DNA from: an uncultured Clostridia bacterium
GTDB lineage: Bacteria > Bacillota > Clostridia > Christensenellales > Pumilibacteraceae
Direction of reading: 5' to 3'
Assembly: GCA_947066105.1 (NCBI GenBank)
Contig: CAMSYM010000008.1
Location: 26,695-90,694 of the forward strand
DNA length: 64,000 nucleotides
This document shows, in pieces, positions 10,096 to 60,038 of the stretch (the stretch's first letter is position 1; each line of letters opens with the position of its first letter). Under the pieces are notes generated by a model that was given only the letters and a program-made list of their open reading frames with translations, was not told where the DNA came from and did no database searches. Made by a program: the position numbers and the translations under genes.

Positions 10096-10096
10096 T

Positions 10097-30456: not shown

Positions 30457-33400
30457 ATGAAAAAACATTCCAAGGCAGTCCGTAGAGGCGTTACCGCAGG
30501 TGCGCTCGCGGCTGCGGTAGGACTCGTCGGAGCGGCGGGAGGTATCGCGGGAGCGGGCGCAAACGGCGCGTTTGCCGCGACGGCGGAACCGCTCTACAAA
30601 TCGGCGTATTCGAGCAAGGCGGAAGCCATGCAGGCGGGACTCGATCTCAACTTGAAGATCGCCGAAGAAGGCATGGTTCTTTTAAAGAACGAAAACAAAA
30701 CGTTGCCCATTGCGTCGGGCGGCGTCAAGGGCGCGCGCGTTACCGTGTTCGGTCGTGCGGGTACTAAGCCCGCCACGGGCGGGAGCGCAAACGGCGGCGA
30801 CGCGTCCGGCGGCGTTGCGGGAGTAAGCGTCGACATTTACGACAGCTTGGCGAGCGCGGGCTACCGCGTCAACCCCGTAGTAAAAGCGCAGTACGTCGAT
30901 TGGACTTCGCAGGTGCGCGAAGTACCCGGCACGGACTGGCAGGGCAATCCCACGGTCACGCAACAGCCCGTATATCCGAGCGATGCGTCCATCGCGGCGG
31001 AAATAGAAAAATTCGGCAACGACAGTGACTGGGTCAAGTCGTTCGACAGCTACAACGACGCGGCGCTCATATTCATAAGCGGCGGGTCCAACGCGATAGG
31101 TTCGGGCGCGGGCAAACGCATACACTCGTTGCAGCTCGACGAAGAGCAGTACGAACTTGTGGAACACGTGGTCGATTCGGGTAAGTTCAAACGCATAGTA
31201 TTGCTTTTGAACACCTGCACGCCGCTCGAACTCGATCTTGCGAGATTCGACGATGTGGGCGCGATATTGCAGATAGGCGAGCCGGGCGACAACGGCTTGG
31301 GCGCGCTCGGCAAAGTACTTAACGGCACGGTGTCCCCGTCGGGACGGCTTACCGATACGTGGGCTAAGGACTTTACGAAAGACCCGTCTTATCACAACTT
31401 CAATACCCGTACCGACAACTTCGGTTGGTCGGTCGACGGCAACGGAACTTTTACCGGCTATACGCGGTATAAGGTGGACGGCAAGCTCGTCAACACGTGG
31501 TCGGTTGGATACGAGGAAGGCATCTATACGGGTTATCGCTATTACGAAACGCGCGGCGCGTCCGACGAAGCTTGGTATAACAACAACGTCAACTGGACGT
31601 TCGGCTACGGTCTTTCGTATACCGATTTTAAGTGGGAGCTTGTCGGCGAGCATATGAACACGACCGGTATCGGCGCGAACACTACGTTAACATACGATGT
31701 GAAGGTCACCAATACCGGCGATCATGCGGGTAAGGACGTTGTGGAACTTTATTACACTGCGCCGTACACCGAATTCGACAAAACCAACGGCATAGAAAAA
31801 GCGCATGTCGTTTTGGGCGATTACGCCAAGACCGATACGCTCAGACCGGGCGAAAGTCAGGTGGTCCATCTTACGCTCGATGCGAAGGATATGGCGTCCT
31901 ACGATTTTGCGGTAAATAAAACTTACGTACTCGAACAGGGCGATTACGAAGTCAAGCTCATGGAGAACGCGCATACGGCTAAGGGCGAGAACTTGTCCAA
32001 GACGTATAGCGTTGCGGACCTTGTCAAGTGCGACACCGCCGTTACGGGCAACAAGATAACCAACCAATTCGACGACGTTACCGACGGCTTTAAGTCCGAA
32101 GGCTACGTATCGCTTTCGCGCAACGACTGGGAAGGCACCATGCCGACCGAGCTTGCGACAGTCGATACCGTCGACGGCTACGCCAAGGCGAGCGTCAAGG
32201 AGATAACCGCCGAGCAATATAAAAAATGGGCGTACGACGACGCGGCGTTCAACGCCAAGTACGACGGCATAGCTACCGTCAAGCTCGGCGACGCGTCCAA
32301 GCGCACCGGCGATACGTATAAGTTCGTTCTTTCCGACCTTATCGGCGCGGATGCGGAAGACGCGCGTTATCAGGAACTCGTCGAACAGCTCACCGTCGAA
32401 GAGATGATCGATCTCGTCAACAACGGCGGATTCCAATCCAAGGCGATACCGTATATCGGCAAGCCGTTCTCGCGCGATACCGACGGGCCCAAGGGCTGGA
32501 CGGGCAACTATACCGACAGCACCGACCGCTTCAACTTCTTCGCGTCCGAACCGATGATCGCAAGCACGTACAGCAAAGACCTTGCGTACGAAATGGGCGT
32601 TATGATCGGCGAACAGGGCTTGTGGGGCAACGCCACGCAGGAAAGCGGCGTCGCGTACAACTATACCGGCTGGTACGCGCCCGGCATGAATATACACCGC
32701 GGCTACTTCGACAGCCGCTATACCGAGTATTATTCGGAAGACCCCGTGCTTACCGGCATGACGGCGGCTTCCGCGTCGCTCGGCGCTAAGTTGAAAGGTT
32801 GCTATATCACGCTCAAACACTTTGCGTTCCACCAAGACGGCGGCGGCGCGTCCACCTACCGTGCGGGCGCGATGGCGGCGGCAGGCACGCCCAACGAAGG
32901 TTTGTCGGCGTGGATGACCGAACAGACCATCCGCGAGCTTTATCTCAAAGGCTATCAGATCGCTGTCGAAAGCGGCGAAGCTACGTTCGCCATGGGTTCG
33001 TTCACGCGTATCGGCTATACCTGGTGCGGCGGCAGCTATGCGGTAAACACCGCGCTCCTGCGCGACGAGTGGGGCTTTAAAGGCGCGGTCGTGACCGACA
33101 TCGTTCTTTACAACTCGGTCAACGCGTATCAGCTCATCAAAGCGGGCGCCAACCTTATGCTCGACGCCAAGGTGTACGGCATAAACGGCGGCATTTATCT
33201 CGACAAAGCGACTATCGACGCAATGCCCGCCGCGGATAAAAACATCACGCTCCATTGCTTACAGCAGGCTACCAAGCAGGTACTGTACATGGTCGCCAAC
33301 AGCAACGCCATGCAGATCCCGACCGGCGCGAAAATAGTCTACACGGGCATGACCGAAGTAGACGGCGAAGAAGTAGAGCTCAAACTCGCGGACGCCAAGG

Positions 33401-33768
33401 TCGGCGCGGCGTATACTTCCGTCGCCGTGAACAATGCGTCGCTCAACACGTACTACGCATTCTCGGATATCCGATACTCGGTGGCGGGTCTGCCCGACGG
33501 CTTGACGTTCGACGCCGATACAGGCGTGATAAGCGGCACTCCGACCAAGGCGGGCGTCTACAACATTACCGTCACCGCCACGGCGGAAGGCTATAAGTCC
33601 GCATCGATCGATCTCGCTTTGACGGTCGGCGCGGCGGACGGCGCGATAGACGCCGCCGATAACGGCGATACCGTCGACGCGGTGGCTGTTGCCGGTCTTG
33701 TTATCGGTATAGTCGGCTTGCTCGCGGCGGGCGCGGCGATAGCGCTTGTCGTGGTCAAGAAAAAATAA
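30457..33768 (+). CDS. GH3 beta-glycosidase 1 (permuted domain order), secreted, with Ig-like domain and C-terminal TM anchor
   Basis: EEGMVLLKNE, SPSGRLTDTW, YEEGIYTGYRYYET, FGYGLSYT, DTDGP, KHF, nucleophile motif VVTD, GLPDGLTFDADTGVISGTPT. Confidence 0.9.
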   Translation: MKKHSKAVRRGVTAGALAAAVGLVGAAGGIAGAGANGAFAATAEPLYKSAYSSKAEAMQAGLDLNLKIAEEGMVLLKNENKTLPIASGGVKGARVTVFGRAGTKPATGGSANGGDASGGVAGVSVDIYDSLASAGYRVNPVVKAQYVDWTSQVREVPGTDWQGNPTVTQQPVYPSDASIAAEIEKFGNDSDWVKSFDSYNDAALIFISGGSNAIGSGAGKRIHSLQLDEEQYELVEHVVDSGKFKRIVLLLNTCTPLELDLARFDDVGAILQIGEPGDNGLGALGKVLNGTVSPSGRLTDTWAKDFTKDPSYHNFNTRTDNFGWSVDGNGTFTGYTRYKVDGKLVNTWSVGYEEGIYTGYRYYETRGASDEAWYNNNVNWTFGYGLSYTDFKWELVGEHMNTTGIGANTTLTYDVKVTNTGDHAGKDVVELYYTAPYTEFDKTNGIEKAHVVLGDYAKTDTLRPGESQVVHLTLDAKDMASYDFAVNKTYVLEQGDYEVKLMENAHTAKGENLSKTYSVADLVKCDTAVTGNKITNQFDDVTDGFKSEGYVSLSRNDWEGTMPTELATVDTVDGYAKASVKEITAEQYKKWAYDDAAFNAKYDGIATVKLGDASKRTGDTYKFVLSDLIGADAEDARYQELVEQLTVEEMIDLVNNGGFQSKAIPYIGKPFSRDTDGPKGWTGNYTDSTDRFNFFASEPMIASTYSKDLAYEMGVMIGEQGLWGNATQESGVAYNYTGWYAPGMNIHRGYFDSRYTEYYSEDPVLTGMTAASASLGAKLKGCYITLKHFAFHQDGGGASTYRAGAMAAAGTPNEGLSAWMTEQTIRELYLKGYQIAVESGEATFAMGSFTRIGYTWCGGSYAVNTALLRDEWGFKGAVVTDIVLYNSVNAYQLIKAGANLMLDAKVYGINGGIYLDKATIDAMPAADKNITLHCLQQATKQVLYMVANSNAMQIPTGAKIVYTGMTEVDGEEVELKLADAKVGAAYTSVAVNNASLNTYYAFSDIRYSVAGLPDGLTFDADTGVISGTPTKAGVYNITVTATAEGYKSASIDLALTVGAADGAIDAADNGDTVDAVAVAGLVIGIVGLLAAGAAIALVVVKKK

Positions 33769-33885
33769 CCGTTTAGAATACCGTAATAACTGTCAATAAT
33801 AAGTAGCGCGGTAAGTCGAGTGCGTTCGCCGTATGCGGGCGTACTCGGCGAACGCGTAAATACTATTAAAGAAAAGGAGACAACT

Positions 33886-34515
33886 ATGAAAAAGTTCATC
33901 AAAAAATTGCTTGCCGTAGCTTTGGCGGGTTGCATGCTGTTTTCCGTGGGCGCGCTCACGGCATGCGGCAACGGCAACGACGAGGATAACGGCGGCGACA
34001 ACGGTTCGGGAACGGAATACACGTTCGAAGCGGAGTACACCGATCTTACGGGGCTCGAAGGCATGGGACCGTCGGGCAGTCCCAAGGGGCTGGACTTGAT
34101 AAGCGAATCCAAAGAGGCGAGCAACGAGTTTTTTGTGGGAAGCTTGGGCGAAAAAAGTCCCATAACGTTCAAGATCACGTCCGACAAAGCGGTGACCGCC
34201 ACGCTTAAAGGCATATTCGGCAGTAACGCGCTTTCGCCCATAACCTGGACTCCCGATACCTTTGCGATCGAAGTCAACGGCACGGCGATAACGTACAGCG
34301 GGTTCAAGACCGAAACGTCGGTGTCGAGCACGCAAAACTTCAAGCTCCGCACGATAGGCGATATTTCGCTCAAAGCGGGCGAGAATACGATAGTGTTCAA
34401 GCCGAAGGAAAACAAATATCTCAACGGTACTACGAGCGCGCCGTCCATCGACTGCATCAAGCTTACAGCCGATGCGACGCTCACTTTCGACGCGCACGAG
34501 AGCAATCTCGATTAG
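33886..34515 (+). CDS. Lipoprotein with a single CBM6/35-like beta-sandwich domain
   Basis: Lipobox LTAC. The domain starts FEAE and ends APSIDCIKL, as in CBM6/35-like folds. Confidence 0.7.
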   Translation: MKKFIKKLLAVALAGCMLFSVGALTACGNGNDEDNGGDNGSGTEYTFEAEYTDLTGLEGMGPSGSPKGLDLISESKEASNEFFVGSLGEKSPITFKITSDKAVTATLKGIFGSNALSPITWTPDTFAIEVNGTAITYSGFKTETSVSSTQNFKLRTIGDISLKAGENTIVFKPKENKYLNGTTSAPSIDCIKLTADATLTFDAHESNLD

Positions 34516-34540
34516 TATCGATCTATTGTAATACGAAGAT

Positions 34541-34620
34541 AAACGGAAAGGCGTTGTATCGGCTTGCGTTGCGTCGTTACGCCGCTTGCGGTCGGTACGG
34601 CGCCTTTTCGTTTTATTTTT
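34541..34620 (+). terminator. Long intercistronic stem-loop (attenuator/stabiliser)
   Basis: 24-bp stem, 34541-34564 with 34590-34613, containing G-U pairs and followed by a T-rich run. Confidence 0.7.
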
Positions 34621-34659
34621 TACTTAACGGACCGAAAGCGTAACATAGGGAGCATATGT

Positions 34660-37600
34660 ATGGATCTTAAATTTATTTGGAAGCACAAAGGTACGCGCGC
34701 ATGGCTGTTGACTACCTGCATACTGTTGGTATTGGTGTTGGTCATCTCCTTCGTCATAACGCAAGTACCCATAATCAACAACTCGTTGGGACTGGTATTC
34801 GGCGGCGAGCGCGCCAATATAGTCGAAGATCGGCGCGACGAGCTTTACAACCGCGAGTACGACAACAAAAAGGACGTGCTCGCCGCGGCGAACGAGTTTG
34901 TGGAAAGCGTCGCCGAGGAAGGCATAACGTTGCTTAAAAATCAAAGCAATGCGTTGCCGCTCGGCGCGGGCGCCAAGGTCAGCGTGTTCGGCAAAAACTC
35001 GGTCGATCTCGTTTACGGCGGATCGGGTTCGGCGAGCGGCGCAACGGGCGCGGCGCGTAAAACGCTTTACGACAGTCTTAAAGCGGCGGGCATCGAATAC
35101 AACCCCGTGCTTAAAAGCTTTTACGACGACAATTCGCGGTCGGGTTCTGGCAGACCGGATAACCCGCCCATGACGAGCGGTCAGCGCTTGGCGGGCTTTG
35201 CCGTAGGCGAAACGCCTATAGCGTCGTACGAGCCGCTCGAAAATTCGTACGACGGTTATACGGACGCGGCGATCGTCGTGTTCTCGCGCATAGGCGGCGA
35301 AGGATTCGATCTGCCGCGCACCATGGCGGATGATTTCGGGTCGGATAAACCCGTGTCGGGCGCGGAGTCGGCGGACAGCCATTATCTCGAACTCGACAAA
35401 AACGAAAAAGCGTTGTTGGACCACGTCAAATCCAAGTTCGGAAAAGTGGTGGTCGTGCTCAATACGGGTACGACAATGGAACTCGGCGCGCTCGATGCCG
35501 ACCCGGATATCGACGCGGTGTTGTGGATGGGCTTGCCCGGCGCGACGGGCGTCATGGCGCTCGGCAGGATACTTACGGGCGAAGTCTATCCGTCGGGGCG
35601 CACTGTCGATACTTGGGCGGCGGATTTCACCAAAGACCCCACCTGGTACAATTCGGGCGTTTACGGCAGTAAGTACGGCAACCGCTATCTGAAACCCGAC
35701 GGCTCGACGAGCGATTTTGCTTTCGTTAATTACGAAGAAGGTATTTACGTCGGCTATCGCTATTACGAAACGCGAAGCTACGAAGAGAACAAGACCGCGC
35801 AGACCGTCGACGAGTGGTACGATGCAAACGTCGTGTATCCTTTCGGCTACGGACTGTCGTATACCGATTTCGATTGGGAAGTGTCTTTCGATAAACCGAC
35901 GGGTTCGGCAATAAATGCGGACGACGTTATCAAGGCGACGGTCAAGGTCACGAACAAGACCGAAGTCGCGGGCAAGGACGTCGTTCAGCTTTACTATACC
36001 GCGCCGTACACTGCGGGCGGCATAGAAAAATCACACGTCGTGCTCGGCGCGTTCGCAAAGACAAAGCTCATCGCGGGAGGCGGCACGGATACCGTCGAGC
36101 TGGAACTCAAAGTATCGGATATGAAGTCGTACGACTGGTCGGACGCCAACGGCAACGGGTTCAAGGGCTACGAGCTGGACGCGGGCAAATACACGGTGAC
36201 GGTCGGAACGGACGCGCATACCGCAAAGGCGAGCGCGACGTACGAGCTTAAAGACGGCGTTACGTTGCGCGAGATAGCCGATGCGGACGGAAAAGCGGTC
36301 GCGGTGCAAAACCGTTTCGACGACGTGAGCGCGGGCATATTCGGCAACGATACCGCGGCGGCGTATGTATCGCGTTCGGACTTTGACGGAACTTTGCCGC
36401 AGGCGTATTTGACGGACGGCGAGCGTACGCTCACGCAAGAGCTTTTGACCAAGCTCGAAAATTCGATCAAGCGCAAGTATACGGAATCGGACGACGGCAA
36501 AAAATGGCAGGTGACCGGCGAGTCGCCGCGCACCACGCCCGTCGATAACGGGATATCTTTTGCCGACATGCTGTATGACGACGACGGCAATTTCGTCGGT
36601 TCGGCGGACTTCGACGATCCGCGCTGGGAAAAACTGCTCGACGAGATATCGCTCGACGAAATGAAAAATCTCGTCGGATTCGGCGCGTTCCGCACCAATG
36701 CTGTGTCGGGCGTGAACGGCGTAGTGGATAAACCGTTGACCAACGACAGCGACGGTCCGAGCGGGTTCACGAGCTTTATTTCGGGCGCGACCATATACGA
36801 CACCTGCTCGTATCAGGCGGAATGCTTGCTCGGCGCGACGTGGAACGTAGAGCTTGCTTACCGCATGGGCGAGATAGTCGGCGAGGAAGGTTTGGTTGGT
36901 AACGAAAAGGGCGACGGCATGCCGTACAGCGGCTGGTATGCGCCGGCGGTAAATATCCACCGCAGTCCGTTCGCTGGCAGGAACTGGGAATATTACAGCG
37001 AGGACGGCTTGCTTTCGGGCAAGTTCGCCGCCGAAGTCATTAAGGGCGCGCGGACAAAGGGCGTATATTGCTACGTCAAGCATTTTGCGGTAAACGATCA
37101 GGAAACCGACCGCGAGTACAACGGGATCTTGGTTTGGGCTAACGAACAGGCTATGCGCGAGATATACTTGGAGCCGTTTGAAATAGCAGTCAAGCAGGGC
37201 AAAGCCAACGCCATGATGACGTCGTTCAACCGTTTGGGCATGACGTGGGCTGGCGGCAGCTACGAGCTGCTCACCGAAACGTTGCGCGACGAATGGGGCT
37301 TTAAAGGCATGGTCATTACCGATTACAGCCTTAACCGTTATACGTACGTCGATCAGATGATACGCGCGGGCGGCGACTTGTTTTTGACTCAGGACGTAAA
37401 AACGTTCAATATGCCCGACGACGCTACGCAGGTAACGCTGTTGCGTAAGGCGACTAAAAATATTTTGTATACCGTAGCCAACAGCAATATCATGAGCATA
37501 AAGATAGACGGCTATAAGCTGGCGGTGTGGCAAGTGGTCCTTATCGTTATCGACGTAGCGGTGATAGTCGCGCTCGCCGTATGGGGAGTGCTGATAATAT

Positions 37601-37722
37601 ACTTCACGCGCAAGCGCGAAAAGGAAATGCTCGGCGTCGGTCCGGCGGCGAGTGGGGCGGAGCTCGACCGTTCGACGGACGCGCCGTCGGGAGAACAGCC
37701 TGTCGACAGCGACGAAAAATAA
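34660..37722 (+). CDS. GH3 beta-glycosidase 2 (permuted), N- and C-terminal TM anchors
   Basis: EEGITLLKN, YEEGIYVGYRYYET, DSDGP, KHFAVNDQE, VITD. Confidence 0.9.
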   Translation: MDLKFIWKHKGTRAWLLTTCILLVLVLVISFVITQVPIINNSLGLVFGGERANIVEDRRDELYNREYDNKKDVLAAANEFVESVAEEGITLLKNQSNALPLGAGAKVSVFGKNSVDLVYGGSGSASGATGAARKTLYDSLKAAGIEYNPVLKSFYDDNSRSGSGRPDNPPMTSGQRLAGFAVGETPIASYEPLENSYDGYTDAAIVVFSRIGGEGFDLPRTMADDFGSDKPVSGAESADSHYLELDKNEKALLDHVKSKFGKVVVVLNTGTTMELGALDADPDIDAVLWMGLPGATGVMALGRILTGEVYPSGRTVDTWAADFTKDPTWYNSGVYGSKYGNRYLKPDGSTSDFAFVNYEEGIYVGYRYYETRSYEENKTAQTVDEWYDANVVYPFGYGLSYTDFDWEVSFDKPTGSAINADDVIKATVKVTNKTEVAGKDVVQLYYTAPYTAGGIEKSHVVLGAFAKTKLIAGGGTDTVELELKVSDMKSYDWSDANGNGFKGYELDAGKYTVTVGTDAHTAKASATYELKDGVTLREIADADGKAVAVQNRFDDVSAGIFGNDTAAAYVSRSDFDGTLPQAYLTDGERTLTQELLTKLENSIKRKYTESDDGKKWQVTGESPRTTPVDNGISFADMLYDDDGNFVGSADFDDPRWEKLLDEISLDEMKNLVGFGAFRTNAVSGVNGVVDKPLTNDSDGPSGFTSFISGATIYDTCSYQAECLLGATWNVELAYRMGEIVGEEGLVGNEKGDGMPYSGWYAPAVNIHRSPFAGRNWEYYSEDGLLSGKFAAEVIKGARTKGVYCYVKHFAVNDQETDREYNGILVWANEQAMREIYLEPFEIAVKQGKANAMMTSFNRLGMTWAGGSYELLTETLRDEWGFKGMVITDYSLNRYTYVDQMIRAGGDLFLTQDVKTFNMPDDATQVTLLRKATKNILYTVANSNIMSIKIDGYKLAVWQVVLIVIDVAVIVALAVWGVLIIYFTRKREKEMLGVGPAASGAELDRSTDAPSGEQPVDSDEK

Positions 37723-37742
37723 CGATCGCGATTGTGTTTGCC

Positions 37743-37782
37743 CAAAACGGATATCGGATAAACTTCGGTATCCGTTTTTTTG
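37743..37782 (+). terminator. Terminator ending GH3 cluster 1
   Basis: AAAACGGATATCGG / CGGTATCCGTTTTTT stem. Confidence 0.75.
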
Positions 37783-37886
37783 TGCGTAAAATAAGGATAA
37801 AACGCGGGCGCAACGATTATACTTAATACATATAAAAGACGGCGCAACTACGCGGAAAGCTTTTGCGCCGCGACAAAGGAGACAAT

Positions 37887-38510: not shown

Positions 38511-38524
38511 AATTAAGCGAATGT

Positions 38525-41224: not shown

Positions 41225-41243
41225 GGAGAAGAGGTAATAAGCT

Positions 41244-41660: not shown

Positions 41661-41663
41661 TCC

Positions 41664-42746: not shown

Positions 42747-42836
42747 GGAGAGATGTCTGAGCGGTTTAAGGTGCTCGCTTGGAAAGCGGGTGTAGTCTAA
42801 CAGCTACCTCGGGTTCGAATCCCGATCTCTCCGCCA
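42747..42836 (+). tRNA. tRNA-Ser(GGA)
   Basis: Cloverleaf with long variable arm, anticodon loop TTGGAAA, GGTTCGAATCC T-arm, encoded CCA. Confidence 0.95.
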
Positions 42837-43037
42837 AAACCACTATATATTGTGTATATGGTGGTTTTTTATTGCGAAATTGTCACAACACCAAAAGGCA
42901 TACATTACACGCTTAGTATACAAAAAGCGCACTTTTACGGCGTTAAATTTTATTAGGCATGCGCATTTATAATGTTGACATGTGTCGGAATTTATGATAT
43001 TATTAGTAAAAAGCGAGATTGCGGAGGCGAAAATTGT

Positions 43038-45953: not shown

Positions 45954-45984
45954 CTCGGTAAATTTCAATGTCAAGGGATCGGTC

Positions 45985-46328
45985 ATGAAAAAATTTAAAA
46001 GCATAATAGGCGTTTTGTGCGCACGCTTGATGCTTTTCACTGTCGCAGTCGGTTGCGGCAATGCGCACGCGCCGATTTTCCCCGACGGTGGTATCGAAAC
46101 TCGCGTAACGCCGCCCGACGGCGGGGATGAGAAATATGGAGCTTTGCGGGCTTTGATAATCTCGCATTGCAGTTCGCCGCGATCGATAGAGTTACGTTCG
46201 ACGGTTCCGACATAACGGGATCGTCCTATCATGCAACGCAGGTTTGCAAAGCTTGCGCGGTAAGCATGATTAACGGGCATGGCGTGAGCTTTTTTTCGCG
46301 GTACTTCGGTGATGTTGCGGAAAAATAG
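45985..46328 (+). pseudogene. Frameshifted lipoprotein-like remnant
   Basis: Signal peptide with VAVGC lipobox in one frame. It continues as WSFAGFDNLALQFAAIDRVTFDGSDITG... in another frame from about 46137 to TAG 46328. Confidence 0.5.
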
Positions 46329-46368
46329 GGTGGGCCGTAAAGCGTTACGGCAAAAACACTGCGGATAA

Positions 46369-47739: not shown

Positions 47740-47781
47740 CTTGAAATGCCCATTGACACTCGCCGCGCGGCTTATTATAAT
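47714..47781 (+). promoter_or_regulatory. Putative LytTR direct-repeat site plus sigmaA promoter of GH3 cluster 2
   Basis: CCAAACTTGAAACG (47714) and CCTAACTTGAAATG (47735), 21-bp period. TTGACA (47753), 17 bp spacer, TATAAT (47776). Confidence 0.75.
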
Positions 47782-47843
47782 GGTATCGGAATCACGCCCG
47801 ATACCGTTTTTTGCGTGATAAATAAATTTCAACGGGAGAGTGT

Positions 47844-49469: not shown

Positions 49470-49481
49470 TCGGAGATATAT

Positions 49482-52400: not shown

Positions 52401-53768
52401 ATAGCGAAAATAGCCGTCGAGTACAATACGGGCGTAAAGAGCGGCGTTATAGTACCGCCCGCAAAAAAGCAACGCGTCAAAGATCCCGACTTTAAAATGA
52501 GCAAGCTCGCTAAGATATTCATAGCGGCGACGGGCGGCGCGGCGGTCGCGCTTGCGGTGACGGCGATAGCGCTTTTGGCTACGCCCGCCGAGCAAAGCGG
52601 CGTGCCGCAGGATTACAGACCATACGTCGGCGGGATCACTTTGACTTTCGACAACATGCCCGTTACGGGCGGAGTAGTCACCGTCGAGCGCGGCGGCGAC
52701 ACTCACCGCATAACGGCGCTCGTCGATACGTACGGCATGGAATCGGGCGGGGTCGTATACGAAAGCTCCGACGAGAATATAGCGGCGGTCGGAGCGGACG
52801 GCACGATCGACGCGAGAGCGGTCGGCGAATGTTCGGTCACCGTTACGGTAGTCAACGATAAGTCGGTGTACGGCGCTTTGCTTGTGCGCGTTACCGACGG
52901 CGAGCTTGACGGCACGGCGCACGTCGTGACGGTGGTGGGCGGAAGCGCGAATTTGGCGCAGGCGACTGCGGGAACGACGGTAATACTCACGCCCGAAACT
53001 CGTACGGGCATGCGCTTCGTCGGCTGGGAATTCGACTGTGAAGTCGAACAAAGCGGAAACCTGTTCCGCATGCCGTCCGCGCCCGTTACCGTAACGGCTA
53101 AGTACGAGAAGATAGGTTACAAACTGACGCTCGACGGCGCGACGTTCGCGGACGGCGAAAGCGAAAAAACTCTGTTGTACGAGGACGGTTTCCCGCAAGA
53201 CATGCGTTATACGCTCGACGACGGCGAGCTGTTTTTCGGCTGGCGCGACAAGGTGAACGGCAAACGCGTGACCGATCTTACCATGCCCGCGCGCGACATG
53301 ACGATACAGCCGATGATCCTTGCCAAGGGCGATGCGCTCGTCATGGCGGAAAACGGATTCGATTACGGTTCGGGTACGGGCGGCAATGCGACCGATACCG
53401 ATATCGACGGCGTAGCCGCAAAGCGCATAGAGATAGCGGCGGGGCAAAGCCTTGTGCGCATCAAAAACGGCGGAGTCACCGGCGGCGGCGATAACGACGT
53501 GTACGTCGGCATCACTCTGCGCAATCCCAACGAGTTCGATATAACTTTGGAATATCAGGTGGAGTATTACGGCGTAGTGTGGGGTACGGGCAAGGTGACA
53601 GTCAAGGCGGGCGAAACGGCAACATATGCCATAGTCGTAAACGGACTGGACGCAACGGCGACGCCTTATCACAGAATAGTTTTGGAAGCGGCGACGGAAC
53701 AAACGGCAATGCTCGATTTTTGCGGGTTTATTTACGAAACCGAAGGAGAGAACAATGAAAATGCGTAA
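49482..53768 (+). CDS. GH3 beta-glycosidase 3 (permuted) with TM hairpin, Big_2-like, InlB-B-repeat-like and beta-sandwich domains
   Basis: EEGAVLLKNE, YSEGIYIGYRYYET, TDPDGP, KHFVMNDQE, VITD. Two TMs after the catalytic core. Confidence 0.9.
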   Translation: MNFKTFWKKRSFKAWFCSFIPVLALTLAVVLVLTCNTFLYQTINAVLGGERRVLKSGDPSKYQYYTTEYKGKDDVLAAANALNERIVEEGAVLLKNENNALPVAAGAKATVFGKNSVNAVYGGSGSNAGAGGDDGKCTLYDSLESAGIEYNDAMKAFYDSDKRSGDGRPASPDMNSTITGLTGFATGETPADRYDDTVRASWKDYNDLAIVFISRIGGEGFDLPRSMFWDGKGYQNWNGDSLIPGARNKDDHYLQLDKNETDMISVAAQNFDKVVVVLNCPTSMELGFLDDPDHYAYSDKIKACLWIGTPGNSGMAALGRILTGKVNPSGRTADIYARDFKKDPTWNNFGNNLEEGGNQYVDENGEKRSAYFVHYSEGIYIGYRYYETRALTESNNGNGGWYKDNVVFPFGYGLSYTDFTWSVERTSHSESFDGDDTITVDVKVVNVGDVAGKDVVQLYYSAPYYSDSGIEKSHVVLGAFAKTKLLQPGESDTVALELSARDMASYDYADGNGNGFKGYELEHGNYTLYVARDSHDRSAPVTLSLGADVKYETDGKTETPVKNLFDDVSSRVTEYMSRDDFEGTFPQEPSAELRTLKASDIQKLNYTLKDKASDPWYSTDMPDQSASELTRDQTKIKLYDLIGKDYEHELWDELLDQLTVSQMRSLIEIGNYHTEAIVGIDKPKTTDPDGPMGYSLFMGDDAVYKTCYYAGESLMGSTFNVELAEEFGKMIGDESLIGDRKGDKRTYSGWYAPACNLHRSQFGGRNFEYYSEDPVLSAKMAVGVIQGAMSKGVYTYLKHFVMNDQETNRDTNGIAVWANEQTMRELYFLPFEKAVKDGGTTAMMSSFNRIGFTWAGGNHTLLTKLLRDEWGFKGMVITDYNLQQYMNVDQMIRAGGDVNLSQSKSLKNYDTATSVTAIRKAAKNILYTVANSNAMNGMGEGNVWAYAAPVWFIAMWVVFAVLAAGFVAWGAAVIAKIAVEYNTGVKSGVIVPPAKKQRVKDPDFKMSKLAKIFIAATGGAAVALAVTAIALLATPAEQSGVPQDYRPYVGGITLTFDNMPVTGGVVTVERGGDTHRITALVDTYGMESGGVVYESSDENIAAVGADGTIDARAVGECSVTVTVVNDKSVYGALLVRVTDGELDGTAHVVTVVGGSANLAQATAGTTVILTPETRTGMRFVGWEFDCEVEQSGNLFRMPSAPVTVTAKYEKIGYKLTLDGATFADGESEKTLLYEDGFPQDMRYTLDDGELFFGWRDKVNGKRVTDLTMPARDMTIQPMILAKGDALVMAENGFDYGSGTGGNATDTDIDGVAAKRIEIAAGQSLVRIKNGGVTGGGDNDVYVGITLRNPNEFDITLEYQVEYYGVVWGTGKVTVKAGETATYAIVVNGLDATATPYHRIVLEAATEQTAMLDFCGFIYETEGENNENA

Positions 53769-56700
53769 GAACAAAATGTACAAAGCGACCGCGTCGATTT
53801 TTGCGGCGGCGCTTATCGCGACAAGCGCGTTCGGAGTTGCTCCCGCAATACGCGTTGCGGCAAATAATGCGGGGGGGGGTATGCCTTCCGAAATTTCCGA
53901 AAGCTCCGCAAGCGCGAAAACGTTGAAAAAGAGTCCCGTCAACGGAAATTATTATTTCGCGGATTACGACAGCTCGCAGGAAGCGTTCGAAGCGGGCGAC
54001 AGGCTTAACAAGGATATAATATCCGAAGGCGCGACACTGCTCAAAAACGAAAACTCTCTGCCGCTCAAAGCGGGCGCAAAGGTAAGTATTTTCGGAAAAC
54101 GCTCGGCTAACAACCTGCGTTACGGCGGCGCGGGTTCGGGCGCGGGCAGCGGCGGCGCGAAGATAACTCTCGCGCAATCGTTGGAACGCGCGGGGCTTTC
54201 CGTAAACGCCGCATTGACGTCGTTTTACAATAACAATAACCAGTCGGGATCTGCGGGCGGCGATCTTAACAGTTACGGTGTTTATGCCGGACCCAAAAAC
54301 GGGTTCGAAACGCCGGTAGCCAAGCTCAAACAGTACGTAAACGAAAGCACGTATTCCGAGTACGGCGACGCGGCTATCATAGTGATCTCGCGCGCGGGAA
54401 GCGAAGCGGGCGACCTTACCAAGGGCATGGCGACGGGATACGGCGGCGACGGCAGGCTAAACGGCACTCCCGTTTCGGGCGCGCGCAATGCCGACGATCA
54501 TTACTTACAGCTCGATCAAAACGAGACCGATCTCATCAAGTACGTGGGCGATCGTTTCGACAACGTTATAGTGTTGTTTAACACAGGCTCGCAAATGGAA
54601 GTTGGATTTTTGGACGACGAAAATCACTATGCGTATCACAAAAATATCAAGGGCGCGATGTGGATAGGATTCCCCGGCAACGGCAACGGCTTGGAAGCCG
54701 TGGGCGAGATATTGGCGGGCAAGATAAGTCCGAGCGGACACACCGTAGATACTTACGCGCGCGACTTCAAGCTCGACCCTACGTGGTCGAACATGCCGAC
54801 GTATACAAATAATTTGTTCGTATACTCCAACTATTCGAGCAAGTCGTTCGTCAACTACAAGGAAGGCATTTATTCGGGCTACCGTTATTACGAGACGCGC
54901 GGGTTCACCGAAGGCGACGACGCGTATGTCAGCGGCGGCGAAAATACCGACGTTATCCACGGCACGAACACTACCGAGTGGGATGATTGGTACGACGCGC
55001 ACGTAGTGTATCCGTTCGGCTACGGCTTGTCGTACACTTCGTTCGACTGGGAGTTCGTAAGCTCCACATTGCCCGACGACGGCGTTATAGACCGCGACGA
55101 CGAAATATCCGTTTCGGTCAAGGTGACCAACACGGGCGAATACGCGGGCAAGGACGTAGTTCAGCTTTATTATACCGCGCCGTATACTGCGGGCGGGATA
55201 GAAAAGTCGTACGTCGCGCTTTGCGGGTATGCAAAGACGGGCGTGCTGGCGCCAGACGAAAGTCAGGTCGTCACGATGTCGGTCAAGGCGCGCGACATGG
55301 CGAGCTACGATCATAACGACGCCAATAAAAACGGATTTAAGGGTTATGAGCTGGAAGCGGGCGATTACGTTTTGAACGTAAGTCGCAACGCGCACGACGC
55401 GGTCATAAAAAAGGCGTTCAAGGTGGCGGGAGACGGCTTTAAGTACGCAGAGAACGAGATCGGCGTAATAGTCGAAAACCGCTTCGCCGATGCGGAAGCG
55501 GAAAACACAGTATATCTGAGCCGCAAGGATTTTGCGGGGACGTTCCCCAAAGAGCCGACGGCGGAAGAGCGTATCGCGGCGCAGACGGTGACGGACAAAG
55601 TCGCCGAAACGTCGGACAGCAACAAGATAGTTGCGGGCGACGATCCGTCCGATCCGTACTATGCGAGCGAGATGCCCGTAACGGGCGCGGACAACGGCGT
55701 AAAACTTGTCGATCTTTACGGACTCGATTACGAGAGCGCGGACTGGGAATTATTTCTCGATCAGCTTTCCGTCGGCGACAAGACGACGCGCGGCACTATG
55801 ACCAACGCCGTTTGGGAAAGCGGCTGGACGAGCTTCGGTAACTCGGCGCTCGGCATACCCGATTTTCACCATGAGGACGGTCCGAGCGGTATCGCGGGGC
55901 GGTACGTCAGCGGCGGTAACTATACCAACTTCGCAAGCGAAACGGTCACCGCATCCACTTGGAATAAAGAGCTTGCCGAACGCAAGGGGAATATCATAGG
56001 CAATCAGGGCTTGTTCGGCAACGGCTCGTCGCACGTGGAAGCGCTGTACGCGCCCGCTTGCAATATCCACCGCAGTCCGTTCGGCGGGCGTAACTTCGAG
56101 TATTTTTCGGAGGACGCGTATTTATCGGGCGAGATGGCGGGCAACATCGTCGCGGGCTGTAACGAAAAGGGCATGATAACCTTTGTTAAGCATTTTGCGG
56201 TCAACGATCAGGAATCCAAGCGCGACACGCTGTTGACCTGGGCGAACGAGCAGACTATACGCGAAGTGTATTTGCGTCCGTTCCAGATCTGCGTGGAAAA
56301 ATACGAGTCGCACGGCATGATGTCTGCGCTCAATAATCTCGGCGCGGTATGGACGGGCGGACATTACGAACTTTTAACCGACGTACTGCGCGGCGAGTGG
56401 GGCTTCGACGGCGTGGTCATCACCGATTACGTGCAAGGTCGCGGACAGCTTAACGGCAATATGGCGTTGCGGGCGGGCGGGGATATTTTGCTCGCGACGA
56501 GCGGCTCGGTGCAAAACCCCGCGGGACTCGATAAGCCCACGACCGTCGCTAATCTGCGCCGTGCGACGCATAATCTGTATTACAATATAGTCAACTATAC
56601 CGCGGCTTTCAATAAGAGCGTGATAAACGCGATGGGCGCGTACGACGGCGGCACGCTCGCGCCTGCCATCGATTCGATGGATTACGAGCAGTCGGTAGCC

Positions 56701-58482
56701 GGCGTATCGCTAAACGACGGCGGCTCGCCGAGCGACGTGACGTACGCTTTAAAGGACGGAAGCGAACTTCCCGACGGACTGACTTTGCGCGCGGACGGAG
56801 TGATATCGGGTTCGGCGGCAATGCAGTCGGAGGCGGCGGAATTTACGGTAGTCGCCAAGTACGGGTTTGCCGAGCGCGAAGCGACGTTCACTTTGCCCGT
56901 AGTCGACAAAGATCTTTCGGTCATTTACATCAAACAGCAAAATACAGTCGACGGGTTTGTCGGCGCGGAGCTTAACGAGCGCGTCGACTGGGCATACACG
57001 CTCGACGGCAAAAAACACGATATAAAGTACGGTCTGGCGGACGGGTGCCAAATGCCGTCGGGCTTGACGCTCGGTACGGACGGCGTTATATCGGGCAAAT
57101 CCGAATTGCCGTTCACCGATTACGAAGTGACGGTGCGCGCCGAGAGCGACGGGTTGTTGCCCATGTCCGTCAAGCTCGTTTTGAATATGTACAACGAGCA
57201 ACGCTTCAAGCCGAGCGCGCTCAAAAACGCCAAGCTCGGCACGCCGTATGCGGAAAGCGTTGTCGTCGGCGCGGACGGAACGGCAAAGTACGCATTGCGC
57301 ACGGGCGACAGTCTGCCGCAGGGCTTGACGCTTACCGAGCGCGGCTATATAACGGGAACGCCGACGGAAGCGGGGCTTAAAACGTTTACGGTCATTGCGT
57401 CGGGCGCATACGTCAAAACGCAGGAGCAAACGTTCTCGCTTGACGTAGGCATTCGTTACGATAATTTCACGCCCGCCGACGGTACGGTCGGAGCGAAATA
57501 CGAAACGTATATCAATTTCGCTCAGGGCGCGACCGACGTCAAATACAGTCTTACGGACGGCGCGTTGCCGCGCGGTATCACTCTCACGCGCGACGGGCTT
57601 TTAACGGGAACGCCGACGGAAAGCGGAAACTTCGCGTTTACCGTGACCGCTCGGTCGGGCGCTCTTTCGGACAGCGTTACCGCCAATCTGCATATCGCCG
57701 CCGCGGCGTCGCATACGGCGTATTATGCGGGATTGGGCATAGGCATAGCCGCGATCGTCATAGCGACGGCGGGTTGCGTCGTGTATTTGCTCGTTATAGA
57801 CAAGCGCAATTACGCGGACGGCAGCAAAGCCAAGCTCAACAAGACGTTTATCAAGATAGCGTCGCCGATAGTGGGCGTGATGCTCGTTTGCGTCATAACG
57901 CTTGGCGCGGTCCTTGCGCCGACGGCGGCTGCGGGCAAGCTCGAAACATATACGTTCGAAGCGGAATATGTGTATCTCGACGAATTCATGGGCGCGGGTA
58001 TAAGCAATTCAGGCGAAGGCGTTAACAACATTTACGGCGACGGCGGCGAAAACGACATAAACAAGGGTTGGAGCAACGGTTATTTCTTGGGAAATACGTA
58101 CGCCAAAAATTCGATAACGTTCGAGATAACGTCGGATAAAGCGGCGGACGGCAAGCTTGTTTTACGGCTTGCGTCCGAGCTGGGCAATCTCGCGCTCGAT
58201 AACAGCGTGTTCGGACTGGAAGTCAACGGAAAGGAAGTGGAATACAGCTTGACCGTTGCCAATTCGGCGGCAGGCTCGTACGACTTTGCCGATTATCCGA
58301 TCTCGGCTGTCGTAAAGCTGGGCGAAGGCGTAAACACCGTCACGCTCACGATAAAAGACAACACGTTAAAGGACGGCAACAGCATAGGCGCGCCGCTCAT
58401 CGACTGCATACGCATAACGACGGACGCTACGCTCACTTGGTCGCCGCTGACCGATAATCCCGACAACCGCGGCAAGATATAA
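53755..58482 (+). CDS. GH3 beta-glycosidase 4 (permuted) with four Ig-like (He_PIG-type) repeats, TM hairpin and C-terminal CBM-like domain
   Basis: SEGATLLKNE, YKEGIYSGYRYYET, HEDGP, KHFAVNDQE, VITD. Repeats LPxGLTLxxDGxISGTP. Confidence 0.9.
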   Translation: MKMRKNKMYKATASIFAAALIATSAFGVAPAIRVAANNAGGGMPSEISESSASAKTLKKSPVNGNYYFADYDSSQEAFEAGDRLNKDIISEGATLLKNENSLPLKAGAKVSIFGKRSANNLRYGGAGSGAGSGGAKITLAQSLERAGLSVNAALTSFYNNNNQSGSAGGDLNSYGVYAGPKNGFETPVAKLKQYVNESTYSEYGDAAIIVISRAGSEAGDLTKGMATGYGGDGRLNGTPVSGARNADDHYLQLDQNETDLIKYVGDRFDNVIVLFNTGSQMEVGFLDDENHYAYHKNIKGAMWIGFPGNGNGLEAVGEILAGKISPSGHTVDTYARDFKLDPTWSNMPTYTNNLFVYSNYSSKSFVNYKEGIYSGYRYYETRGFTEGDDAYVSGGENTDVIHGTNTTEWDDWYDAHVVYPFGYGLSYTSFDWEFVSSTLPDDGVIDRDDEISVSVKVTNTGEYAGKDVVQLYYTAPYTAGGIEKSYVALCGYAKTGVLAPDESQVVTMSVKARDMASYDHNDANKNGFKGYELEAGDYVLNVSRNAHDAVIKKAFKVAGDGFKYAENEIGVIVENRFADAEAENTVYLSRKDFAGTFPKEPTAEERIAAQTVTDKVAETSDSNKIVAGDDPSDPYYASEMPVTGADNGVKLVDLYGLDYESADWELFLDQLSVGDKTTRGTMTNAVWESGWTSFGNSALGIPDFHHEDGPSGIAGRYVSGGNYTNFASETVTASTWNKELAERKGNIIGNQGLFGNGSSHVEALYAPACNIHRSPFGGRNFEYFSEDAYLSGEMAGNIVAGCNEKGMITFVKHFAVNDQESKRDTLLTWANEQTIREVYLRPFQICVEKYESHGMMSALNNLGAVWTGGHYELLTDVLRGEWGFDGVVITDYVQGRGQLNGNMALRAGGDILLATSGSVQNPAGLDKPTTVANLRRATHNLYYNIVNYTAAFNKSVINAMGAYDGGTLAPAIDSMDYEQSVAGVSLNDGGSPSDVTYALKDGSELPDGLTLRADGVISGSAAMQSEAAEFTVVAKYGFAEREATFTLPVVDKDLSVIYIKQQNTVDGFVGAELNERVDWAYTLDGKKHDIKYGLADGCQMPSGLTLGTDGVISGKSELPFTDYEVTVRAESDGLLPMSVKLVLNMYNEQRFKPSALKNAKLGTPYAESVVVGADGTAKYALRTGDSLPQGLTLTERGYITGTPTEAGLKTFTVIASGAYVKTQEQTFSLDVGIRYDNFTPADGTVGAKYETYINFAQGATDVKYSLTDGALPRGITLTRDGLLTGTPTESGNFAFTVTARSGALSDSVTANLHIAAAASHTAYYAGLGIGIAAIVIATAGCVVYLLVIDKRNYADGSKAKLNKTFIKIASPIVGVMLVCVITLGAVLAPTAAAGKLETYTFEAEYVYLDEFMGAGISNSGEGVNNIYGDGGENDINKGWSNGYFLGNTYAKNSITFEITSDKAADGKLVLRLASELGNLALDNSVFGLEVNGKEVEYSLTVANSAAGSYDFADYPISAVVKLGEGVNTVTLTIKDNTLKDGNSIGAPLIDCIRITTDATLTWSPLTDNPDNRGKI

Positions 58483-58511
58483 AAAGTATTTTACGGGAGA
58501 TCGCAGATATC

Positions 58512-60038
58512 ATGAAAAACAGGTTCAAAAAGCTTATGCTCGCAATATTCGCTATGACGGCGGTCGCAATGTGCGTGTTGGCGCTGGCGGCGTGCAGCGG
58601 TGGATATGTGGAAAAGCTGTCCGTAAAGGGCAAGATGTACTACATGGTCGGCGACGAGTTTGCCGGTGCGACGCTGACTGTCACGTATTCGGACGGCAGG
58701 CGCGAGCAGGTGGACGTCACTGCCGATATGGCGAACGGGTTCGATACGACGGTCGCAGGCAACAAAACGATAGCGGTCGTTTACGGCGGCAAGACGGTCG
58801 CCTTTGATATAACCGTGTCGGAGCTGTACGCGTCGGGCATATCCGTCGCCGACGGCGGCAAGACCGAATATCTTATCGGAACGCAATATGCGGACGGCGA
58901 CGCGAGTATAAACGTTTCGTATACCGACGGCACGGTGCAGACCGTTCCGATAACGGGCGGAATGATCTCCGGGCTGGACACGACTGTCGAAGGAGAAAAA
59001 ACGGTCAGCGTCAAGTATGGAATGCTGGACACGGCGTATACCGTGACGGTGCGCTATCCGTACGTCGTTTCGGCTACCGTCGCAAGCTCGACCAAAAGCG
59101 TGTACCGCGTGGGCGACGAGTTCGGCGGCGTGACGCTGGACGTGGTTTACGAGGACGATACGAGCGGCTCGGTGACCTTGACCGATATCGAGAGAGTAAA
59201 GGGCTTCGATACTACGGGCATAGGTCCGCGCACCGTGCGCGTCACGTACCGCAACCGTACGGTAAGTTACGACATACAAGTGCTTAAAGCGATAGCGGGC
59301 GTTACCGTAAAGAGCAGCGTCGGCATGTACGCAAAGGGCGACGCGTTCAAGGGCGCGGAGCTTGCGGTGGAATATGCCGACGGCACGAGCGAAACCGTTG
59401 CGGTCACGCCCGAAATGCTGACGGAGTTCGATACTATGCAAGTGGGCGATCGGACCGTCAAGCTGATGTTTGAAAACAGGGAGCTTACGTTCGGCATAAC
59501 CGTTTACGGCAAGTTCGCGGACGACGGCGGCGACAACAAGATACAGGTCGAAGACGGCGATCTCGTCGATATGAGCGGCGCGCAATTGCAAAGCGGCGCG
59601 GCAAGCAAGTTTGAAAGCACGACAAAAAATGCGCAAAACGAAGAATATTCAAACGGCGCGGAAGGATCGAGTACGGCGAATATTTCCGTTCAAGGCAATA
59701 AGATAGTTATCCGCTTTATCGCCGAGCGCGCCGGCAAGTATAAGCTGGGCATGCGCGCGCAGTCGGGCAGCGACGCCGGCAAAAGCGACGTCAAAGTCGC
59801 CGACGCATTCGATATATATGTCAACGGCGACATAAAGACGGCGAGCGGCGTCATACAAAAGGGGAGCGCCACGGGCGTCAACTGGAAGGATATGACTAAC
59901 TGGACGTTGCTCGACGATCTCGTCGGCGAGATCGATATCGTCGCGGGACTTAACGAGATAGAGCTCGCGTTCAAGGGCGGCACGGCGCAGACCATGCGGT
60001 TCCCCAATATCGACTATTTCGTCCTTACCGCGGTGTGA
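58512..60038 (+). CDS. Lipoprotein with four Big_3-type repeats and C-terminal CBM-like domain
   Basis: Lipobox LAAC. Repeats YxVGDEFxGATLTVTYSDG..GFDT. C-terminus ends RFPNIDYF. Confidence 0.75.
   Translation: MKNRFKKLMLAIFAMTAVAMCVLALAACSGGYVEKLSVKGKMYYMVGDEFAGATLTVTYSDGRREQVDVTADMANGFDTTVAGNKTIAVVYGGKTVAFDITVSELYASGISVADGGKTEYLIGTQYADGDASINVSYTDGTVQTVPITGGMISGLDTTVEGEKTVSVKYGMLDTAYTVTVRYPYVVSATVASSTKSVYRVGDEFGGVTLDVVYEDDTSGSVTLTDIERVKGFDTTGIGPRTVRVTYRNRTVSYDIQVLKAIAGVTVKSSVGMYAKGDAFKGAELAVEYADGTSETVAVTPEMLTEFDTMQVGDRTVKLMFENRELTFGITVYGKFADDGGDNKIQVEDGDLVDMSGAQLQSGAASKFESTTKNAQNEEYSNGAEGSSTANISVQGNKIVIRFIAERAGKYKLGMRAQSGSDAGKSDVKVADAFDIYVNGDIKTASGVIQKGSATGVNWKDMTNWTLLDDLVGEIDIVAGLNEIELAFKGGTAQTMRFPNIDYFVLTAV

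Follow-up and report, generated by a model that had tools for sequence, protein, structure and literature searches.

We examined a 64 kb stretch of DNA from an uncultured Clostridia bacterium of the mouse gut (contig CAMSYM010000008.1; hereafter the window) and studied its region 30457–60038. The region is best explained as two paralogous operons for a cell-surface exo-glycosidase apparatus, built from glycoside hydrolases of family GH3 and small lipoproteins. Cluster 1 (approximately 30285–37781) holds the genes GH3-1, lipoS, and GH3-2, which we call the type I trio. Cluster 2 (45243–60079) holds six genes: a response regulator (RR), a histidine kinase (HK), lipoA, GH3-3, GH3-4, and lipoB. 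All genes of the module lie on the forward strand, as do the promoters, repeats, and terminators described below. The limits given for the region in an earlier note on this DNA are exact, as 30457 is the first base of GH3-1 and 60038 is the stop of lipoB.

Judged from the sequence, the region is a real, conserved, and uncharacterised surface module, which on balance probably harvests terminal β-linked sugars from soluble oligosaccharides or glycosides. Searches of the open-access literature gave no earlier description of a system of LytTR, GH3, and CBM35-like lipoproteins. In the proposed module, the phosphorylated RR would bind a repeat with a 21-bp period and activate the operon that runs from lipoA to lipoB. 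Outward-facing catalytic domains would act on soluble oligosaccharides or plant glycosides and release their terminal β-linked sugars (of the glucose, xylose, or arabinopyranose type). Domains resembling the carbohydrate-binding modules (CBMs) of families 35 and 6 would hold the substrates at the membrane. The released monosaccharides would enter through general transporters encoded elsewhere, and expression may further vary, in an on/off or graded manner, through poly-G tracts in the promoter spacers. Glycan harvesting by gut Firmicutes is far less understood than the Sus paradigm of Bacteroides.

Four permuted GH3 proteins

The earlier note had described four large GH3 enzymes with permuted domain order, intact TD nucleophile motifs, and membrane anchors. 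Pfam domain order, the aligned motif, and the prediction of transmembrane (TM) helices all agree with this description. The order in all four proteins is Glyco_hydro_3_C, Fn3-like, and Glyco_hydro_3, which is the permuted order of the GlyA1 type. Their alignments are collinear with PDB entries 5WUG and 5K6L and swapped relative to 2X40 and 8IDZ. The four proteins are 34–50% identical to one another and are thus paralogues. The closest solved structures are β-glucosidases, including the permuted 5WUG and 5K6L; GH3-2 has PDB matches at an E value of 5e-74. The nucleophile motif (V/I)TD(I/Y), equivalent to Asp709 of GlyA1, is aligned in all four proteins and in all relatives. The acid/base glutamate is kept as SRIGGEGFD in GH3-2 and GH3-3 and as SRAGSEAGD in GH3-4, and these three proteins retain every catalytic and −1 subsite residue. 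The GH3 proteins of the window are predicted to be exo-β-glycosidases of the β-glucosidase/xylosidase clade and not of the NagZ clade. The permuted topology is that of a described subfamily (PMC5104943), for which two reports give β-glucosidase/xylosidase activity, broad specificity, and occurrence in gut Firmicutes (PMC5104943, PMC11233000).

The topology of the proteins was derived from hydropathy analysis and the positive-inside rule, and their domains from Pfam. GH3-1 (30457–33768; 1103 aa) carries a cleavable signal peptide, a permuted GH3 region without the acid/base loop, a He_PIG Ig domain, and a C-terminal TM helix followed by KKK. GH3-2 (34660–37722; 1020 aa) has its canonical permuted GH3 region between TM helices at the N and C termini. 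GH3-3 (49482–53768; 1428 aa) starts with a TM helix, which is followed by a canonical permuted GH3 region, a TM hairpin around a basic loop (residues 950–968 and 1014–1032), and a second ectodomain with Big_2, Flg_new_2, and a β-rich C-terminal domain. GH3-4 (53755–58482; 1575 aa) has a signal peptide, a canonical permuted GH3 region, He_PIG repeats, a TM hairpin (residues 1329–1347 and 1368–1386), and a fused C-terminal domain that we call type A. From this topology, the catalytic domains of all four are predicted to face outward. No LPXTG-like motif, SLH, dockerin, or cohesin was found in the GH3 system of the window by motif check and Pfam, in keeping with the earlier note, in which no LPxTG, SLH, or dockerin was recognised.

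The architecture is similar to that of GlyA1 (PDB ID: 5K6L), the β-glucosidase of Paenibacillus barengoltzii (PDB ID: 5WUG), and BrGH3A. All share the order of (α/β)6 sandwich, FnIII domain, and (β/α)8 barrel, with the nucleophile Asp in the barrel and, in GH3-2, GH3-3, and GH3-4, the acid/base Glu in a loop of the sandwich. The window proteins differ in their length of 1000–1575 residues and in their Ig stalks, TM hairpins, second ectodomains, and signal peptides or TM anchors. BrGH3A lacks a signal peptide and was proposed to be intracellular (PMC11233000). No membrane anchor is described for GlyA1 or 5WUG in the sections consulted, whereas the GH3 proteins of the window are anchored.

GH3-1 differs further from the GlyA1 type, since its acid/base loop is wholly missing. 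Alignment to TnBgl3B and GlyA1 shows a deletion of the loop of about 23 residues that bears the canonical glutamate (Glu143 in GlyA1; ‘SGEGYD’ in TnBgl3B). The stretch KHFAVNDQE, located by the active site, is replaced by a conserved insertion, KHFAFH(N/Q)DGGGxxTYRxG. The deletion and the FH(N/Q)DGGG insertion are common to 20 of 20 aligned relatives and to every type I trio in other genomes (contexts L026, L027, L148, and L149), in each of which the partner GH3 is of the canonical kind. Hundreds of close relatives share the architecture of GH3-1. In GH3-1, the nucleophile is retained, as are the −1 subsite residues Asp, Arg, and Lys-His. The earlier statement that the GH3 catalytic motif is intact thus applies to the nucleophile of all four proteins but not to the acid/base loop of GH3-1. 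PDB searches and alignments gave no solved or characterised GH3 in this loop-less state. GH3-1 may use another acid/base residue, act on activated or assisting substrates, or serve in sugar binding alone. That a large GH3 subfamily lacks the canonical acid/base residue poses a concrete question of enzymology.

The whole subfamily of GH3-1 lacks this loop, and the proteins stand on He_PIG, Big_2, and Big_3 stalks. Together with the poly-G promoter spacers, which are G9 or G10 between samples, these features would suit an adhesin or colonisation factor. Ig-stalked GH3-like proteins and CBM-like lectins would then bind host or dietary glycans, and phase variation would evade immunity or phage. 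We consider this very unlikely. In GH3-2, GH3-3, and GH3-4, all residues of catalysis and of the −1 subsite are kept, and even GH3-1 has its nucleophile and the Asp, Arg, and Lys-His that bind substrate, for which a pure lectin would have no use. The known variation of the tract is one between samples.

It is also conceivable, though doubtful, that the type I trio is an unrecognised three-part surface machine that is widespread in gut Clostridia. This would combine the non-canonical GH3-1, a canonical GH3, and a CBM35-like lipoprotein with an AgrC-like kinase that does not sense peptides and with poly-G spacer variation. GH3-1 would use a His/Asp acid/base as in NagZ-type GH3 enzymes, substrate- or anion-assisted catalysis, or pure substrate capture. 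Slipped-strand changes in the poly-G promoter spacers would form a second layer of control.

Lipoproteins with CBM35/6-like domains

The exo-glycosidase module that we favour includes three lipoproteins, each of which has a lipobox. LipoS (33886–34515; approximately 209 aa) consists of a type A CBM35/6-like domain, as indicated by its alignment to GH3-4. LipoA (47844–49469; 541 aa) has Big_3 Ig domains, a Cys/His-rich middle part, and a C-terminal CBM35/6-like domain of a second kind, type B. LipoB (58512–60038; 508 aa) has four Big_3 Ig domains and a C-terminal type B domain. The earlier note had placed the lipoproteins on Ig stalks. This is correct for lipoA and lipoB, which carry Big_3 domains, but lipoS has no such stalk.

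The claim that all three lipoproteins end in CBM-like sandwiches was confirmed at the level of the predicted fold, which is CBM35/6-like by AlphaFold2 and Foldseek. The AlphaFold2 model of the lipoB C-terminal domain (type B) has a predicted local distance difference test score (pLDDT) of 90, with a best Foldseek E value of 5.6e-7 against CBM35/CBM6 structures. The C-terminal domain of GH3-4 (type A) has a pLDDT of 76.6 and a best E value of 5e-7. Both types match many CBM35/CBM6 entries with a Foldseek probability of 1.00 and E values of 5e-7 to 1e-5. The TM-scores of 0.5–0.74 to CBM35/CBM6 structures indicate that the domains are divergent. The type B fold of lipoA was assigned from lipoB, to which it is 44% identical. 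Comparison with hhalign shows the profiles of the two types to be homologous (88%, E 3e-6). The C-terminal domain of GH3-3 (approximately residues 1282–1428) shows no detectable relation to either profile (hhalign probability 0.5%). A Pfam search of the C-terminal domains at E values up to 10 gave no match over threshold; CBM_35 was found at E 0.11, and PF14683 scored 21 bits, with a cut-off of 27. Searches of PDB sequences with the C-terminal domains gave no match. On the basis of the models, both types appear to be divergent CBM35/6-like domains beyond current Pfam models, and carbohydrate binding is predicted.

Residues 1361–1570 of GH3-4 align with full-length lipoS, with 37% identity in the type A domain. 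In this alignment, the second helix of the GH3-4 TM hairpin is matched by the lipoS signal peptide. By sequence, the C-terminus of GH3-4 is thus a fused copy of a small lipoprotein, joined via the TM hairpin. In relatives, the type A domain is a separate lipoprotein with a Cys lipobox, directly after a He_PIG GH3 gene, and the same arrangement is seen in cluster 1 of the window. L023, L001, and L024 show a similar pattern for the GH3-3 extension, which they lack or encode separately. The occurrence of the type A domain in split and fused forms suggests that the CBM lipoprotein works with the enzyme. It is the best evidence that lipoprotein and enzyme cooperate, and an argument of this kind from genomes is rare. 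The pattern supports the idea of an assembly, as proposed in the earlier note, while a complex is unproven.

The lipoproteins can be compared with the SusD/E/F proteins and surface glycan-binding proteins of the Sus-like systems of Bacteroidota. By an analogy of function alone, both would be lipid-anchored, Ig-stalked proteins with predicted carbohydrate binding, encoded beside surface glycosidases. The window differs in having no SusC/SusD pair and no outer membrane, and the folds, which are CBM35/6-like here, are unrelated.

Between the Ig domains of lipoA (residues ~100–285; 48140–48700) there are Cys/His-rich repeats, for example H..F....H....C.CG and C....G.....C..C. CxxC inserts like those of lipoA also occur in the relatives P0038 and P0039, with no Pfam match. 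The repeats may be extracellular zinc-ribbon-like modules.

Conservation and the absence of a linked transporter

The lipoB family is rare. There were 28 matches among 5.8 billion clusters, all from uncultured Clostridia, and the gene order is the same in every context recovered. A scan of GTDB species representatives gave 13 loci in eight metagenome-assembled genomes (MAGs). These include Ca. Protoclostridium gallicola, Ca. P. stercorigallinarum, two genomes labelled Christensenella sp., and several labelled uncultured Eubacteriales, Clostridia, or Firmicutes. The module of cluster 2 is present in at least seven related MAGs, with tblastn identities of 40–80%. The order RR-HK-lipoA-GH3-GH3-lipoB is whole in L006, L013, and L018 and present in part in L001–L005, L009–L012, L014–L017, and L019–L021, and its flanks differ from genome to genome. 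The conserved unit of cluster 2 thus comprises six genes, the two-component pair among them.

Cluster 1 shows much wider conservation than cluster 2. The trio is intact in all four contexts examined (L026, L027, L148, and L149), as a He_PIG GH3, a protein of approximately 215–240 aa, and a GH3 of approximately 1000 aa. In L026 and L027, the tblastn identities are 58–59% for GH3-1, 53% for lipoS, and 65–68% for GH3-2. A LytTR/HATPase_c_5 pair adjoins the trio in three of the four (L026, L148, and L149). Relatives of GH3-1 include proteins of Lachnospiraceae bacterium 10-1, Kineothrix sedimenti, and Ca. Coproplasma. The trio is kept at over 50% identity across Lachnospiraceae, Coproplasma-like, and Christensenellales-like genomes. 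Lachnospiraceae bacterium 10-1 and Kineothrix sedimenti, in which the trio occurs together with a LytTR pair, are culturable, which makes it directly testable.

The recurrence of these gene sets in many genomes argues that the arrangement is not due to chance. The synteny check suggested in the earlier note, that is, whether the lipoprotein domains occur next to GH3 elsewhere, gave such co-occurrence in all 13 genome loci and in L001–L006, L023, L024, L026, L027, L148, and L149.

No ABC (ATP-binding cassette), PTS (phosphotransferase system), or MFS (major facilitator superfamily) sugar transporter and no other GH family is encoded in the 64 kb window. Its only ABC genes (8341–11899) encode exporter-type fused proteins beside a MarR gene. 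The earlier note had reported this absence for the two clusters; it extends to the whole window, and a transporter is also missing from the related modules, with none in or beside the module in more than 15 contexts whose flanks are otherwise unrelated. Such an absence is unremarkable for exo-enzymes that release monosaccharides.

A Gram-positive polysaccharide utilisation locus (gpPUL) is defined by an enzyme that degrades polysaccharides, a system for carbohydrate transport, and a regulator, and LytTR proteins are among the gpPUL regulators (Sheridan et al. 2016, PMC5320581). The window locus is similar to gpPULs in its clustered GH genes with a regulator in gut Clostridia, cluster 2 having a LytTR/GHKL pair. 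It differs in having no transport system and so falls outside the definition. It also has a single GH family, with CBM lipoproteins instead of ABC solute-binding proteins. As for the enzyme, four GH3 proteins of an exo-acting family are present, and Pfam gave no endo-acting enzyme. Definitions of this kind would miss the module, as it has no linked transporter.

The products of exo-acting GH3 enzymes are mono- or small saccharides, which need uptake, and our view of the genome is limited to 64 kb. In L148, genes for SBP_bac_1 and methyl-accepting chemotaxis proteins lie approximately 3 kb downstream, on the other strand. The region could on these grounds be an ordinary glycan-utilisation locus, with a dedicated transporter encoded elsewhere and co-regulated via the same LytTR box, so that ‘transporter-less’ would describe position only. 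We regard this as improbable, given that more than 15 contexts hold no transporter in or next to the module.

The genes linked to the module also bear on a role in remodelling of the envelope. The GH3 proteins would then trim or turn over the cell-wall or capsular glycopolymer of the bacterium itself, the CBM lipoproteins would bind it, and the LytTR pair would couple the system to envelope state or cell density. Directly upstream of cluster 1 is an operon that encodes a GT2 glycosyltransferase and UDP-galactopyranose mutase (Glf), in L027 the trio is followed by a weak GtrA-like gene, and neither a transporter nor catabolic genes are linked to the module in the genomes examined. Candidate phase-variable promoters, as found here, are typical of surface-structure genes. 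AgrC-like kinases are not usually sugar sensors. However, the adjacency to GT2/Glf is absent from every other genome examined, and in the window the two operons are split by a hairpin and have their own promoters. The enzymes fall in the β-glucosidase/xylosidase clade and not in the NagZ clade, and one distant relative lies beside rhamnose catabolism genes, which points to nutrient use. We therefore think envelope remodelling unlikely, and retain the harvesting of sugars from soluble substrates as the preferred explanation.

The distant relative is found in L007 (950–12457) and L008 (GCA_022511445.1), with a lipoprotein that is 31% identical. There, a permuted GH3 gene follows rhamnose catabolism genes (an FGGY-family kinase, rhaA, an iron-containing alcohol dehydrogenase, and a class II aldolase) and precedes three small genes of unknown function and a Big_3 lipoprotein. 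The arrangement is a hint that glycosides with rhamnose serve as substrates in that lineage.

In L026, a 3.3-Mb genome, three consecutive tyrosine-recombinase (Phage_integrase) genes at 6109–9082 lie directly upstream of the trio and its LytTR pair. Their position suggests that a mobile element can carry the module.

Regulation and neighbouring genes

The RR (45243–45953) consists of a receiver and a LytTR DNA-binding domain, and the HK (46369–47739) has a polytopic N-terminus and a GHKL (HATPase_c_5) domain in an AgrC-like architecture, both assigned with Pfam. The NCBIfam matches of the RR to BtsR, LytR, and AgrA are far under the cut-offs. RR orthologues in the same position are 50–57% identical, and HK orthologues are 55–59% identical. 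The LytTR/GHKL pair had been described as adjacent to the system. It does adjoin cluster 2, but cluster 1 is approximately 7.5 kb away, with unrelated genes in between.

The gap of 415 bp between RR and HK holds a 76-aa open reading frame (45985–46215) with the lipoprotein signal MKKFKSIIGVLCARLMLFTVAVGC. The insert is lineage-specific. RR and HK abut or overlap in all orthologous modules, and the insert is also present in the strain of run X1.

A repeat scan identified a LytTR-type box at 47713–47747, formed by ACCAAACTTGAAAC and ACCTAACTTGAAAT with a 21-bp period. Its core is the exact 9-mer repeat AACTTGAAA-N12-AACTTGAAA (47717–47746), which extends to 14 bp at 13/14 identity. This pattern is unique in the window, where 0.04 occurrences are expected by chance. 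The box sits 6 nt upstream of a σ70 promoter with consensus sequence (TTGACA-17-TATAAT; 47753–47781; 12/12 matches) that would serve lipoA through lipoB. The promoter equals those of the rpsL and rplM operons in quality, and its position is conserved in orthologues. LytTR proteins such as AgrA, ComE, and PlnC bind paired 9-bp direct repeats with a 12-bp spacer just upstream of the −35 box. The box has this classic layout and is the predicted target of the RR. In six orthologous loci, the same position before lipoA holds another box, whose sequence is conserved among these loci. Direct repeats are also found upstream of the trios, with a period of 21 bp in L027 and 20 bp in L148. A scan of JGI metagenome contigs for AACTTGAAA-N12-AACTTGAAA, aimed at co-regulated genes such as one for a transporter, gave only chance matches, at least 120 in number, none with a downstream −35 box and none window-like, 18 specified bases being too few for a collection of that size. 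A hairpin with a T-run (47779–47814) overlaps the −10 box and has equivalents in orthologues. By sequence and position, it is probably the terminator of the RR-HK transcript, sited so that transcripts from the lipoA promoter escape it. Cluster 2 ends with a strong hairpin terminator of 11 pairs, seven of them GC (60052–60079), and cluster 1 with a terminator-like hairpin and T-run (37755–37781).

The earlier note had put both clusters under one LytTR pair. The tie to cluster 2 holds, as the pair is part of the conserved module and a LytTR-type repeat lies by the lipoA promoter. For cluster 1 it finds little support. The repeat scan of the window found no convincing LytTR-type repeat upstream of cluster 1, lipoS, GH3-2, or the RR gene, and the one point in favour is that trios of the cluster 1 type elsewhere have their own LytTR pair. 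No Rfam riboswitch or leader RNA was found in 26000–64000, and the 139-nt leader of cluster 1 is not unusually structured (z = −1.2).

The pair resembles Agr-type systems (AgrC/AgrA, ComD/ComE, and PlnB/PlnC) in its polytopic HATPase_c_5 kinase, its LytTR regulator, and the 9-bp repeats with a 12-bp spacer. It differs from them in having no AgrB/AgrD and in the genes that would be regulated, which encode glycosidases and lipoproteins.

The putative promoter of cluster 1 (30285–30316), found by inspection of the sequence and a homopolymer scan, consists of TTGACA, a 19-nt spacer with a G10 tract (30301–30310), and TATACT. Tract lengths were read from assembled contigs. The tract at 30301 is G9 in run X3 and G10 in X1, X2, X7, X10, and X15, and contigs break at it in X4, X8, and X17. 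L006 and L017 have G10 and G9, respectively, with near-identical flanks. A G10 tract is also conserved across diverged strains. The 377 kb of L001–L021 contain only four G/C runs of at least 8, all of them in promoter spacers of the module, before lipoA or the RR gene; L022–L027 contain none. The promoters of Neisseria porA and opc hold poly-G or poly-C contingency tracts. The tracts described here are similar in that G9 or G10 lies between the −35 and −10 boxes of surface-protein operons and varies in length between samples. They differ in occurring in Clostridia and in being known from assembled contigs alone. The tracts bear the signature of contingency promoters and are candidates for phase variation. 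Together with the LytTR box, they provide handles on the in vivo switching of surface enzymes.

A further G9 tract (53871–53879) lies in frame within GH3-4, at codons ~39–41 (AGGGM), just past the signal peptide. It was considered as a translational phase switch, which is unproven, as its length is the same in X1 and X3 and it is absent from orthologues.

The window sequence is present in mouse-gut metagenomes. In a mouse-gut metatranscriptome (X5), contigs of 100% identity extend across GH3-1, lipoS, and GH3-2, together with small pieces of RR and HK. One contig starts at 30392, downstream of the putative cluster 1 promoter. No X5 contig covers lipoA to lipoB, and X5 is not among the RNA runs that hold cluster 2. 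This weakly suggests that cluster 1 was expressed and cluster 2 silent in this sample. The silence of lipoA to lipoB would fit an inducible rather than constitutive cluster 2, despite its consensus promoter.

Several observations weigh against a surface module for sugar harvesting under the control of the LytTR pair. GH3-1 departs from the permuted GlyA1-like subfamily in its acid/base residue, and at least one ‘enzyme’ may therefore not hydrolyse ordinary glycosides. The NCBIfam matches of the GH3 proteins reach 168–270 bits against equivalog cut-offs of 666–1350, and the sugar specificity is not fixed by them. The model of the type A domain is of moderate confidence at its pLDDT of 76.6. Cluster 1 of the window has neither an adjacent regulator nor a box. 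The lipoA promoter is already at consensus and so may need no activator, and the box could equally serve repression. An AgrC-like kinase without an extracellular domain is not an obvious sugar sensor, and neither the window nor the orthologous modules hold AgrB/AgrD or other genes for peptide pheromones or their export. The RNA evidence consists of assembled contigs from one run.

The approximately 7.5 kb between the clusters hold sodA, a gene of unknown function on the minus strand, rplM-rpsI, a DUF2804 gene, a tRNA-Ser, and a GmrSD island. The island (42747–45065) comprises tRNA-Ser(GGA) and then a gene for a GmrSD-type restriction endonuclease, with 41% GC compared with ~53% elsewhere. It resembles a small defence island that was inserted at the tRNA, and RR and HK follow shortly downstream. 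The rpsL-rpsG-fusA operon directly follows the terminator of cluster 2.

Upstream of cluster 1, the GT2/Glf operon (27299–30090) has a promoter with 12/12 consensus matches, and its genes imply a galactofuranose-containing surface polymer. A link between this operon and cluster 1 was considered and dropped, as the adjacency is not kept in other genomes examined.

At the 3′ end of the MarR gene, upstream of the two genes for ABC exporters, there is an exact 12-bp direct repeat with a 21-bp period (ATAATGCGTAAT-N9-ATAATGCGTAAT; 7814–7846). The AATGCG core of this repeat is similar to the box before lipoA in orthologous loci. A BspA-type leucine-rich-repeat surface protein of 1497 aa is encoded at 2683–7176. 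Ca. Protoclostridium gallicola (L018) has a related leucine-rich-repeat gene and tex upstream of its module, an arrangement partly syntenic with the window. Between tex and a DUF4097 gene, the window has two copies of an element of ~155 nt (25571–25727 and 26034–26185), which are 458–463 bp apart. Their 82-nt cores are 99% identical, and each copy contains a G10 tract.

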